From NCBI GenBank assembly GCA_963804645.1, contig CAWDRG010000002.1, positions 158,095-222,094 on the forward strand: DNA of 64,000 bases. The letters are read 5' to 3'. The notes under the pieces were generated by a model. The model saw only the letters and a list, made by a program, of their open reading frames with translations, did not search any database and was not told where the DNA came from. A program made the translations under genes and the position numbers. Source of the DNA: an uncultured Bacillota bacterium (GTDB lineage Bacteria; Sysuimicrobiota; Sysuimicrobiia; Sysuimicrobiales; Segetimicrobiaceae). Positions 54,671-58,869 of this stretch are shown here, one piece after another. Position 1 is the first letter of the stretch; each line of letters starts with the position of its first letter.

Positions 54671-54689
54671 CGCCCGCGCAGTGCCCTAG

Positions 54690-54870
54690 CAGGACGCTGA
54701 AAAATCGGGTATTTGCATGTTCATATAGAATCATACTCTATCGCGTTTGGCCTCACGCGTCCCTCCGTCGGAGATCCCACGATGCGCGGAGACGATTGGC
54801 AGCAGTAGGCGATTATCTCTCTCGAAATTGCACCCACGCTCAACTCTAAGCTTAGTTTTTCCGCGACCTG
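54690..54870. mobile_element. 181-bp MITE (IS5/IS1182-like ends)
   Basis: TIR CAGGACGCTGAAAAA vs CAGGTCGCGGAAAAA (13/15); CTAG on both flanks; no ORF. Confidence 0.8.
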
Positions 54871-54990
54871 CTAGTATTACAAAGTCACATTACCAGCAGG
54901 ACTTTGGCTACGCCTGTGGAATGGCAGTAGCGAGCTCAGCATATATCGCACCTCTCGTCGCAGCAGACGTCGTTGCCGCGGGTGTCGCCG

Positions 54991-56332
54991 ATGGTCACTT
55001 CGCCGCCCTTCACCGATCCCGCTCTGCGCCAGCGTTTCGTCGAGTACGTGACAGCCGTCCTCCCGGACCTGGGCCGCAAGGATCGCCAGCCGTGGGCGGA
55101 GGCCTATGTGCGCGGGTTGCTGCTCGAAGGCGAGCGCAAGTCCATCGAGCCCATGGCCAAGCGGTTGCCCGACGGGAATGTCCAAGCCTTGCAGCATTTT
55201 ATTGGAAAGAGCCCGTGGCCCTATGGCCGGTCCGCCAGCGGGTGGCGGGCGTGCTGTGTCCGGACATGGGCCCGGGGCTGTGGATCGTGGATGAGACCGG
55301 CTTCCCCAAGCAAGGCACGCATTCCGTCGGCGTGGCGCGGCAATACTCGGGGACGTTGGGCAAAGTCGCCAACTGCCAGGTGGCGGTCAGCCTGCATCAC
55401 GCCACCGCGACGGCGAGTCTGCCTGTGGATTGGGCGCTGTTTCTGCCGGAGGAGTGGACGCAGGATCCGGATCGCTGTGCGGCCGCGGGCGTCCCCGGGC
55501 CCGTCCACCACCAGCCCAAGTGGCGCCTGGCCCTCGACCTGATTGATCACGCCCGCACCTGGGGCCTGGCCGATCAACGGGTGATTGCCGACGCTGGCTA
55601 CGGCACGATCGCGGAATTCCGGGCCGGGTTGCGGGCGCGGCGCTTGCCCTATGCCGTGGGCGTCGAATCGGGCACCGGCGTGTGGACGCGCCGACCCCGA
55701 CGGCGCCGACGGCCCAACACCGGGCGCGGACGACCGCCCACGCGCTGGGACTACGGCGGCCAACGGCCGCCGCAGTGTGGGAGACGTGGCCCGCGCGCTG
55801 CCGGCCGCCGCGTACCACACCGTGACGTGGCGCGCAGGGAGCAAAGGGACACTCACGGTCGCGCTTCGCCCGGGTCCGAGTGTGGCCCTCCCACGGGTAC
55901 CACGCGGGCAAGCCGCCGGAGGACGAGCAATGGCTGCTCATTGAATGGCCGGCGGACGCCGCCCAACCGACGAAGTACTGGCTCGCCACCGCCCCACAGC
56001 GCCTCTCGTTGGTTGCAACTGGTCCGCTGGGCCAAGGCGCGCTGGCGGGTCGAGCAAGATTACGCGCAGCTCAAGGATGACCTCGGGCTCGATCACTTCG
56101 AAGGCCGCCGCTGGCTGGGCTGGCACCATCACGTCACCATGACGACGATGGCCTACGGGTTCTTGATCCGCGAGCAACTCCGGCACCGCGTCGGAAGGGG
56201 AAAAAAACGGCGCGCGTCCCCACGATCCCCCAGGTCCGCGCGGAACTCCAGTACCTCCTGAAAACATGGACAGGATACTGCATCGTGTGCGGCCAACTCG
56301 TCCCCGGCGCGATCAAAGATGACTCATCCTAG
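54991..56332 (+). pseudogene. IS701 transposase, frameshifted
   Basis: RKSIEPMA, VDETGFPKQG.HSVGVARQY.G.LGK.ANCQ, ADAGYG, RWRVEQDY, GLDHFEGR.W.GWHHH. Confidence 0.88.
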
Positions 56333-56343
56333 ACATGACATAG

Positions 56344-58201
56344 GTCGAGTAGGACCAGCGATCGCTCGCTGGGACCCCTCTGCCGAACGGCTCGTACGGA
56401 TCTCCCGTAAGCCGCTCTACCCCATGCCGACTCGTGAGTCATCAGGAATATATCCGAAGAGAGTGGAGCCCCAGACGGCGGTAGAAGAATGTTTCAGAGT
56501 ATCGCCGCCAGTTCGCCGTGCGCCAGCGTTTGGCCATGAAGGCCCGCAGCCTCCGAAGGATCCAGCGGTCCAGCGGCCTCCCGATCCGTCGCAAGTCGCC
56601 AATCCGGAAGAATCGTCCCCAACCGCGGAGCACTGGATTTAGCAGCGCCACGATCTCGTCCGCCCGACGCGGTTGGTTACGCCGCGTAAGATGACGGACC
56701 TTGTCCCGGAGCCGCTGTATTGCTCGCGCCCGTGGCTGTAGGTGCAGTCCCTCCTCATCGCGCCAGAAGCGGAATCCAAGGAACTCAAATCCTTCCGTAA
56801 TGTGAACGACCCGCGTCTTCGCAGGATGCAGTCGCAGTCCCAACTGCCCCTCCAGAATCTGGTGGACCTGCTCCAAGGCCGCCTCGGCGTCCTCGCGCGT
56901 TCGGCACACGATGACACTGTCATCAGCATACCGGACCGCGCGATGTCCTGCCGCGAGCATCTGATGATCGAAGGTGTTCAGAAACGCATTACTGAGCAGC
57001 GGCGAAACTACACCCCCTTGCGGGGTGCCCGCTACCAGGGTACGCTTCTTGCCCTCCTCCATCACCCCGGCCTGGAGAAACGCCTGCACGAGCCGGAGAA
57101 TCCGCCCATCCGCCACCACCTCGGCGACTGCGGCCAGCAGCCGCGCATGGGACGCGGTGTCGAAAAACTGTTCAATATCGATTTCGACAATCCACTCGCC
57201 CCCGTGATGCAGGCTCGCCATCACATCGCCAATGGCCTGATGCGCTGACCGTCCTGGACGAAACCCGTAACTGGTCTCCGCAAACCGCGGCTCAAAGTGC
57301 GGTTCCAGCCGCAGACGCATCGCCTGCGCCACTACGCGATCTCGTACAGCAGGGATCGCGAGGCCGCGACGACGTCCATCGGGTTTGGGAATGTAGACGC
57401 GACGCCCGGGCTGGGGCACATAGGCATCGTCCTTGAGGGCCGCCTGGAGTCCTTGCAACTCCTCATCCAAGTGTGCCTCAAATGCCTCAAGGCTCTGACC
57501 ATCCACGCCCCACGTCCCGTGGTTCGCCTTGACCAGCGTCCAGGCCCGCCGCAGATTCGGCAGGTACCAGACCTTGTCGATGAGCGAGCCGACCTTGATC
57601 GGATGCACGTCCTCCGCCACTCCTCCTCCTTCCTGACCAGAGTCCTGTTGGTCGGGGTCTGCACCGGTCGCGGCTCGGGAGCTGCTCATGACAGAGATCC
57701 CTTACCCCGCGCTCGTCAAGCCGATCCCGCCTTCAGGCCACCAAGCATGGAGCGGGTCCCTTCGCTCTGCCAGGTTTCCCTGACCTCATCGCTACGTCTG
57801 GACCCGTCCGACTCCTGAACGTGCATCGGGTTGGCTTTTCCCCTTCCGGGTTATACCGTCCCTACCTGTCCGCGCAGGACCGAACCCTACTCGCGACAGG
57901 ACACGCTCAGGCCTCCCCGGGTCATGCTGCTCTCTGTCCCACCATGCTGCCCGCACCCACGACTGATCCCCCCTGGTCTTCTCTGGATGCCCCTTCCTCC
58001 AGTACTAGCAGAGTCGGGCCTCCAGGGGTTCGCGCCGACCGGTTCGCCTGGCTTCGACAGCCTCGGCTGCGGCCTGGTGGTTTGCCTCAGGTCCTTCAGA
58101 TTCCGCCTCGCGACGGACACCCTACCCTTTTCGGCTACGGTCCGCATCCAGCTGGACCGGCAGGTCTTTCACCTGCGAGAGAACAGCACTGCCGGGCACA
58201 C
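56344..58201 (-). mobile_element. Group II intron (ribozyme + RT ORF)
   Basis: 5' GTGTGCCCGG at 58201; domain V GAGCGGCTTACGGGAGATCCGTACGAGCCGTTC; domain VI ending CCTACTCGAC at 56344. Confidence 0.93.
56442..57620 (-). CDS. ltrA: Group II intron reverse transcriptase/maturase without endonuclease domain
   Basis: RRVYIPKPDG, SYGFRPGRS, GTPQGGVVSPLLSN, RYADD, FEFLGF, domain X LNPVLRGW; GAAGGAGGAGG RBS before GTG 57620. Confidence 0.95.
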   Translation of the reverse strand: MAEDVHPIKVGSLIDKVWYLPNLRRAWTLVKANHGTWGVDGQSLEAFEAHLDEELQGLQAALKDDAYVPQPGRRVYIPKPDGRRRGLAIPAVRDRVVAQAMRLRLEPHFEPRFAETSYGFRPGRSAHQAIGDVMASLHHGGEWIVEIDIEQFFDTASHARLLAAVAEVVADGRILRLVQAFLQAGVMEEGKKRTLVAGTPQGGVVSPLLSNAFLNTFDHQMLAAGHRAVRYADDSVIVCRTREDAEAALEQVHQILEGQLGLRLHPAKTRVVHITEGFEFLGFRFWRDEEGLHLQPRARAIQRLRDKVRHLTRRNQPRRADEIVALLNPVLRGWGRFFRIGDLRRIGRPLDRWILRRLRAFMAKRWRTANWRRYSETFFYRRLGLHSLRIYS

Positions 58202-58210
58202 TAATACTAG

Positions 58211-58311
58211 TGTCCCGAGTCGAAAGTTGCTTCCATAATTCTGAGCTCCGAGGTGCTGACAATCTTGACGAATCTCACCGGACTATGTTAGCGAATCTCT
58301 GACTCAGGACA
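58211..58311. mobile_element. 101-bp MITE
   Basis: TIR TGTCCCGAGTC vs TGTCCTGAGTC (10/11); CTAG on both flanks. Confidence 0.75.
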
Positions 58312-58869
58312 CTAGGCTCCCTCACATCACGTGCCGACTTTTCGTGGATGCAACAGCGGCCACACCGCACCCCCGATTGTTCTGAACCGGTCGTGAGAAA
58401 CCTTTCCGGGCCCTCGCGCCTTGAGCGAACACCTAGCACAGATCGACCGCTTCCGCTACCGAACCACAACCCGTCGGATGGAATGAACTCTCGGGTCTAA
58501 CGCTCTACCAAAACGAAACAAGTCTCTATTGTCACAAGGACAGCGTTGTCTCGTAGTCGAACGCTAGGTTGGCGACGAGCTAGAAAACGAACGGCTATGT
58601 GAGGCGTTCGGCTACGTTGAAGCCTGGCTCCCTGCTCTTCGCGGGGGCTATGCCTTCACCCCCACCTTACCAGGACCTGAAAGCGCCCAGTCCCGAAATA
58701 TCCGGACGGACGCGTGGTTTAACCGGACTCGCGATGGTGGATTGCTTGTCACACCTGGTGAGTCGCGAGATGTCTAGTTTCAACTGTGGAACATATACAA
58801 GGCGTGTTGGGTACACACTGAAGATGCGTCGAAACGTCAAAACGCAAATTCCGGTTCACGGAGAGAACG

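Follow-up and report, generated by a model that had tools for sequence, protein, structure and literature searches.

We analyzed a 64,000-nt stretch of contig CAWDRG010000002.1 (assembly GCA_963804645.1, positions 158,095 to 222,094 of the forward strand) from an uncultured bacterium assigned to the Sysuimicrobiota, referred to below as the window. It contains an insertion sequence (IS) of the IS701 family, the right end of which is interrupted by a group II intron. We consider it very probable that this endonuclease-less intron retrohomes into the tips of IS701-family elements. The features of the locus are listed below; EBS and IBS denote exon- and intron-binding sites, and RT denotes reverse transcriptase.

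54871-54874 (no strand), left CTAG copy, putative 4-bp target duplication (CTAG flanks both ends of all three genomic IS copies)
54875-56343, plus strand, IS701-family element up to the intron; its left terminal repeat starts TATTACAAAGTCA
58201-56344, minus strand, group II intron of 1858 nt, from 5' GUGUG (58201-58197) to 3' ...CGAC (56347-56344)
56349-56376, minus strand, domain VI hairpin with a GCGA loop, from folding
56385-56417, minus strand, domain V hairpin with an AGC triad and a 2-nt bulge, from folding
57689-56442, minus strand, intron-encoded protein of 415 aa, RT plus maturase without an endonuclease domain, from profile matches
56930-56919, minus strand, YADD codons of the intron-encoded protein
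57970-58028, minus strand, EBS1 hairpin of domain I, with the core UAGUACU at 58007-58001
58062-58178, minus strand, part of domain I, weak match to the Rfam model group-II-D1D4-4 (RF02003; 28.8 bits against a gathering score of 49, E 0.00083)
58202-58206, plus strand, outermost 5 nt of the right terminal repeat (TAATA on this strand), severed by the intron
58207-58210 (no strand), right CTAG copy, the A and G of which are positions -7 and -6 of IBS1

The host genome (G000) is a 22-contig draft of 5.3 Mb. Its contigs carry C numbers (the window lies on C2), related genomes carry G numbers, and fetched loci, including metagenome contigs, carry L numbers. With the intron removed, the right end of the IS reads inward CTAG-TATTA-CTATGTCA, and the left end, read from 54871, is CTAG-TATTA-CAAAGTCA. 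The terminal repeats agree at 11 of the first 13 nt in the window IS and at 14/14 in the related element on C5. Moreover, CTAGTATTAC, allowing at most one mismatch, occurs twice in the window against 0.11 expected, a number reached in 0 of 100 shuffles. The intron thus separates base 5 of the right terminal repeat from base 6 and is oriented antisense to the transposase. The tetranucleotide YTAG was found beside IS ends regardless of the intron in 5/5 cases (three left ends, an end fragment on C17, and, from a peat metagenome contig, a right end without the intron), and some IS ends show TTAG instead of CTAG. This count is not circular, since the left ends and the C17 fragment were retrieved by blastn and the fifth case is the intron-free metagenome contig.

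The window transposase matched the IS701-family profile NF033540 (cutoff 150) with 275.9 bits, but only partially (profile positions 52-361). In comparison with both other IS copies, four 1-nt indels private to the window IS (alignment positions 352, 901, 986, and 1144) disrupt its frame (about 54931-56261). The 442-aa transposase encoded by the IS on C11, which also bears the intron, is intact (431.7 bits, profile positions 3-361). A 504-aa open reading frame (ORF; 54747-56261) is open by chance over the window pseudogene, where the DNA has 69% G+C, and automatic annotation would probably call this transposase intact.

On the minus strand, the 5' junction of the intron is ...CTAGTATTA|GTGTGCCCGG... 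and the 3' junction is ...CCTACTCGAC|CTATGTCATG..., giving the order GGGACA CTAG TATTA | GTGTGCCCGG ... CCTACTCGAC | CTATGTCATGTCTAGG. The ends GUGUG and AC satisfy the group II rule (5' GUGYG, 3' AY). Folding placed the domain I closing helix at intron nt 6-10/281-285. No Rfam intron model matched at its gathering score anywhere in the window, which is outweighed by the other intron features. In the related intron of G014, three pairs of domain V and two stem pairs of domain VI are changed on both sides (read by eye). Together with a change in the EBS1 stem described below, these compensatory changes point to a ribozyme under structural selection. The branch point is probably the A located at -7 relative to the 3' splice site.

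The intron ORF, which leaves about 610 nt of the intron outside it, matched RVT_1 (1.3e-40) and GIIM (3.4e-17), and no endonuclease domain was found in it. Against TIGR04416 the protein scored 391.5 bits (cutoff 300). The host genome contains three intron copies, all with an open ORF: in addition to that of the window, there is a copy on C5 and another whose parts lie at the end of C11 and on C22. That the intron, which is intact and endonuclease-less, is active or very recently active is part of the same very probable reading. In the sequencing runs, all of which consisted of contigs, RNA-library sequence covered the intron only (6 and 8 of 30 bins), with nothing on the IS; because it could stem from DNA carry-over, it was not counted as proof of transcription.

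For the analysis of the target, 5' exons were gathered from every stored locus containing the first 18 nt of the intron and hence independently of the exon. Nine distinct 5' exons were obtained, eight of which read YTAGTAYTA (six with CTAG and two with TTAG; five with TATTA and three with TACTA), and this word is present at 3/3 genomic copies. No variation occurs at positions -8 to -4, -2, and -1, and either C or T is found at -9 and at -3. From -10 to -25 there is no conservation among the eight targets, the upstream DNA being unrelated. Downstream, the 3' exon is C(T/A)A(T/A)GTCA... in G000 and in the metagenome contig L014, and CAACGAGAG... at the 80% related intron of G014. The latter is the end of another repeated G014 element that also begins CTAG-TATTA-C (the search for this element required YTAG and is thus uninformative on its flank). 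In relatives, other repeated elements likewise end in this tip. The known 3' exons are IS ends, and the base at +1 is C in 6/6 of them; this C is presumably IBS3.

The intron 9-mer TAGTACTGG (intron nt 195-203, window 58007-57999) pairs with CUAGUAUUA over nine positions, including two G-U pairs. Both a single-sequence fold and a two-sequence consensus fold placed it in an apical loop region, above an outer stem (174-180/226-232) and an inner stem (183-186/210-213). Its core UAGUACU is the exact complement of AGUACUA and forms one G-U pair with AGUAUUA. A full-length relative at another target, L017 (81% identical), has the 5' exon ...GTTTTTCATGG, and its loop positions aligned to EBS1 read CCATGAAGG. 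Here too the pairing is perfect (CCAUGAA is the exact complement of UUCAUGG), whereas the cross-combinations of the L017 and window loops and exons fail to pair. In addition, a G-C pair of the inner stem is A-U in L017. This covariation directly proves a 7-bp EBS1-IBS1 interaction, in which IBS1 is composed of the A and G of the IS target duplication plus the five tip bases. The two G residues following the core are unchanged in both introns and could form G-C or G-U pairs with -8 and -9. The target contains no IBS2, as conservation ends at -9 and L017, whose exon differs, has the same sequence in the part of domain I that precedes EBS1 (nt 148-180).

A preliminary description of this DNA, made from the letters of the window, had placed the intron 5 nt inside the right terminal repeat and had proposed window 57999-58007 as the EBS1 loop. 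Both hold: the junctions, the CTAG on either side, and the TATTA ends fix the position, and the 9-mer is not buried in a stem. It had also pointed to other copies and close homologs as the check on IS-tip targeting, and the flanks of the three genomic copies and the eight matching 5' exons agree with it. The homolog at a different target, L017, carries its compensating change at exactly the proposed EBS1. Of the nine pairs claimed, the 7-nt core stands, and the two outer G pairs are unproven.

The intron occupies 3/3 right ends and 0/3 left ends of the same ISs, and the left ends are all on the disfavored strand. The GC skew of the genome forms consistent blocks of both signs, and its sign corresponds to the gene-strand bias in 15/15 contigs longer than 90 kb. 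At 3/3 occupied sites (four contig regions), the intron sense strand is the G-rich, gene-rich strand, while the C-rich strand contains 6/6 empty matching sites (five TAGTAYTAC and, on C17, the TGCTA-variant end). With the replication direction deduced from skew and gene bias, the occupied strand corresponds to the lagging-strand template. The target junction is present at both IS ends, as the preliminary description stated, but only the lagging-template ends are occupied.

The same occupancy of three right and no left ends would be observed if right ends carried a determinant that left ends lack, or if left-end insertions were selected against, with replication direction not being the cause. 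In favor of such a determinant, the right ends have GTCAYRTCTARGATGRGTCAT in common further in. We nevertheless regard this explanation as unlikely. Between -9 and +9 the C5 element has the same sequence at its left and right ends, of which the right one alone carries the intron. Three solo sites, including the right-end-like C17 fragment, likewise lack the intron and are situated on the C-rich strand. It is uncommon for group II target sites to reach past about +10. For the intron RmInt2 of Sinorhizobium meliloti GR4, the target spans -16 to +7 (PMC4615759).

According to a second alternative, the intron is of the class C (IIC) type and recognizes a DNA hairpin instead of a sequence, the IS tip being incidental. 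It could be invoked because the nearest solved proteins are IIC (7uim with 259.6 bits, 6ar1 with 233.4, 5hhl with 216.8, and 5hhj with 212.8, versus 159.7 for TeI4h and 138.6 for LtrA) and because no EBS2/IBS2 was found. However, this ranking of PDB entries cannot place the intron protein, since there is no solved structure for classes D, E, and F, and a search of a protein atlas returned "group II intron RT/maturase" with no finer class. The 5' exons are unrelated beyond -9, so that no common hairpin is possible. The domain V triad of IIC introns is CGC, and here it is AGC. Furthermore, IIC introns are described as lacking part of EBS1 (PMC3753933), while EBS1 of the window intron has 7 nt and covaries. 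Overall, IIC introns resemble the window intron in the missing endonuclease, the missing EBS2, and the relatedness of their proteins, but they combine a short EBS1 with a hairpin just upstream, in place of which we found a 7-nt covarying EBS1 and no common upstream structure. We therefore give this alternative little credence.

Least credible of all is that the intron entered one IS once and that its copies arose by transposition of the IS with the intron inside: although all copies are at the same position in the same IS family and the ISs of the window and C11 are close (97.9% identical), the other two genomic introns each differ from that of the window by a single base (1/1858 and 1/1746 positions) in ISs that differ by 2.1% and about 20%, the related G014 intron is in a different repeated element with the same tip, and the intron splits the terminal repeat that co-transposition would need. 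The element on C5 is 77-80% identical to that of the window, and the first 140 nt of the 3' exon differ from those of the window at 1 position on C11 and at 33 on C5. Since near-identical introns are found at the same position in three different IS copies that have diverged, we conclude that the intron moved on its own and was not carried passively. Metagenome contig L014 contains an identical intron behind a fourth, different flank.

Several observations weigh against homing directed by the IS tip and the replication strand. The strand statistics are thin: they come from three ISs, each of which inevitably has its two ends on opposite strands, and these ends are not independent. The replication direction is a deduction from the skew and gene bias of a 22-contig draft. 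A genome census revealed 118 empty AGTAYTA|C sites, 63 of them on the favored strand. Of these 63, 20 have C at -8 and 9 read CCAGTAYTAC outside ISs; the latter would form 9/9 Watson-Crick pairs with UAGUACUGG, yet all nine are empty. The EBS1 regions of the G014 and L019 introns were not assembled (the contigs stop about 100-125 nt in), and their pairing was assumed. The host IS on C11 has an intact transposase gene, so IS decay following insertion is not shown. Finally, neither splicing nor mobility was observed directly.

Because the nine perfectly complementary sites are empty, EBS1 pairing is insufficient for target choice. The preliminary description, which had pairing set the choice of target, was correct about EBS1. 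All favored-strand sites with T at -8 are occupied (3/3), and the IS-type 3' exons have C-W-A-N-G in common. Either there are extra determinants (T at -8, or the 3' exon motif C-W-A-N-G), or selection removes insertions in genes.

A repeat array at C19:220422-220661 of the host genome consists of about 24 tandem copies of the 10-nt unit CCCAGTACTA, each with a 7-nt core target; all are on the disfavored strand, and all are empty.

On the basis of these data, the following mechanism can be proposed for homing to the IS tip. The intron RNA-protein particle would recognize single-stranded DNA with the sequence 5'-YTAG TAYTA|C-3', its loop UAGUACU (EBS1) pairing with the AG of the target duplication and the first five IS bases. 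The RNA would then reverse-splice between IS bases 5 and 6 on the strand that is the template for lagging-strand synthesis, and the nascent lagging strand would probably prime the cDNA. Such a target would exist only where an IS of this kind has integrated into YTAG, and several diverged IS lineages sharing the TAYTAC tip would have been invaded. Insertion would place 1.86 kb between the 5-nt tip and the remainder of the repeat, and it is plausible that this disables the IS end. In summary, the position, the independent spread, EBS1, and the strand bias were established from the data, while priming, IBS3, the extra determinants, and IS inactivation were inferred.

Concerning the distribution of the intron, the sister species G010 contains truncated pieces, one at C37:2222-2571 (intron nt 1-351, 98.6% identical) behind a CTAG-TACTA exon and one at C56:9093-9603 (nt 753-1264, 96%), which are decaying copies. 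A DNA search across class and phylum detected only fragments beyond G010 and G014, with matches in 5 of 94 genomes including G000. The intron protein was detected at E<=1e-60 in 11 of the 94 genomes, and outside the lineage nothing closer than 47% identity was found among them, a figure that rests on G047. A protein-seeded locus search of genome contigs yielded 113 pattern stretches, 0 of which were confirmed. Four more group II intron protein genes, 40-43% identical, are present in the host genome (C20:1806-2981, C15:386922-388034, C15:457756-458871, and C5:193269-194384).

Other genes, spanning 7.8 kb, lie between the right end of the C5 element and its matching left part. The interval (C5:302613-310390; L080 1814-9591) encodes a 456-aa RT (RVT_1 only), an ISL3 transposase, and a PEP-CTERM protein, and it represents either nested insertions or two separate IS remnants.

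The relative L017 lies about 95 nt downstream of the stop codon of an ISNCY-type transposase gene (NF033593), with an outward orientation. The tip of this IS end can be defined from six copies in G009 and is ...CATGG-CGAA followed by CTAG or CTAA. As judged from these copies, L017 would sit 4 nt from an ISNCY-type tip, an assignment that is partly resolved, since its own 3' exon (CACGGCG...) mismatches the G009 tip. A pattern search with the L017 exon junction gave matches at the level of the reversed-pattern control, i.e., noise, and no inverted repeats were found at the ends of the ISNCY-like copy on C9. Two look-alike junction sites in G000 turned out to be unrelated on inspection. The six G009 ends (on C41, C49, C81, C34, C36, and C86) are flanked by CTAG or TTAG like the IS701-type ends.

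In the peat metagenome run X5, loose ends at window positions 56347 and 58201 led into contigs joining intron-like ends to other exons. The loose 3' exon resembles, from its sixth base, a small CTAG-flanked element, and the loose 5' exon is ...CCATTTGGGGC; each is a 30-nt consensus only. These ends suggest further retargeted relatives, one of them 5 nt inside the repeat of the small CTAG-flanked element. The junction predicted for this element had 0 exact matches in the 94 genomes, and of seven one-mismatch matches, the four inspected were not introns. We tentatively raise the possibility that the intron lineage is specialized in the last 4-5 bases of YTAG-targeting transposons and switches between unrelated families by EBS1 change. 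Only integrated transposon copies would be targeted, because the recognized word spans the junction between duplication and tip. If true, the lineage would be a dedicated, retargetable killer of transposon ends, each insertion removing one.

A 101-nt noncoding element with inverted repeats TGTCCYGAGTC...GACTCAGGACA and CTAG on both sides abuts the IS at window 58207-58315. Two copies are present on C9 of G000 and two in G010, and an IS630-like element immediately to the left of the C11 IS terminates in its end sequence as well. CTAG sites are used by several unrelated elements here, which accumulate at them. In the sequence flanking the window IS on the left (54684-54805), there is a repeat of about 122 nt found at seven places in the genome with 80-85% identity. 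The sole Rfam match at gathering score in the window is a thiamine pyrophosphate (TPP) riboswitch on the minus strand (1569-1679, 54.5 bits against 54.3).

The closest precedent is RmInt2, which homes into both inverted repeats of ISRm17 with a lagging-strand bias, so that the idea of the preliminary description is not a new one (PMC4615759). According to the same article, such a bias is established for the endonuclease-less introns RmInt1 and RmInt2, and, as its authors point out, with a target in each inverted repeat, one copy is certain to be on the right strand. Like the window intron, RmInt2 is endonuclease-less, encodes a protein of similar size (about 415-419 aa for the two), is present in multiple copies in IS terminal repeats, prefers the lagging-strand template, and has a 5' exon that extends to the short conserved stretch beyond the repeat core (CTA/CTAG). 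In both cases, some ends are empty and others occupied; on pRmeGR4c, the RmInt2 target word occurs three times, twice occupied by the intron and once empty.

The RmInt2 protein is only 34% identical to that of the window intron (367 aa). RmInt2 belongs to class D, whose C-terminal motif LX3AX3PXLF[V/A]HW (PMC4615759) is absent here (the C terminus is ...RRYSETFFYRRLGLHSLRIYS). The transposase of ISRm17 is of the ISNCY type (NF033593) and that of the host element of the IS701 type. RmInt2 inserts about 13-16 nt into the repeat, while the window intron inserts 5 nt in, with IBS1 across the junction of duplication and IS. In addition, RmInt2 uses EBS2/IBS2 and two protein-read bases, C-16 and T-15, within its target from -16 to +7 (PMC4615759), while the targets of the window intron lack conservation upstream of -9.

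RmInt1 is likewise endonuclease-less and resident in a multicopy IS, ISRm2011-2 of the IS630 family, the spread of which its insertion is said to block, and it shows the lagging-strand bias (PMC5894124). In contrast to that of the window intron, its target is inside the IS and not in a terminal repeat, and it is recognized by EBS1, EBS2, and EBS3 over -20 to +5. Introns of classes IIE and IIF have ribozymes of 450-700 nt without the ORF, define the 5' splice site in vitro by EBS1-IBS1 alone, and end in AC (PMC3753933). The window intron is similar in its compact size and 3' AC, but IIE and IIF introns keep a recognizable EBS2-IBS2, and none was found here; this comparison was made by description. 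Group II introns "hiding" in mobile elements are a general finding (PMC7306698). In the open-access literature, no paper on a group II intron in IS701 ends was found. The homing principle is thus already published, and the window intron extends it.

This extension takes the single published case of homing into IS inverted repeats, that of RmInt2, to another phylum, another IS family, and an intron outside class D, at a site close enough to the tip for the guide to extend into the target duplication of the transposon itself. It provides a natural experiment on target choice without an endonuclease, with one 7-nt guide, no EBS2, compensatory retargeting in L017, and a complete split between occupied lagging-template and empty leading-template sites. 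For targetron design, it offers a compact intron with a specificity that seems to depend on about 9-10 nt plus additional protein contacts. For the biology of these elements, it is an example of one selfish element policing another.

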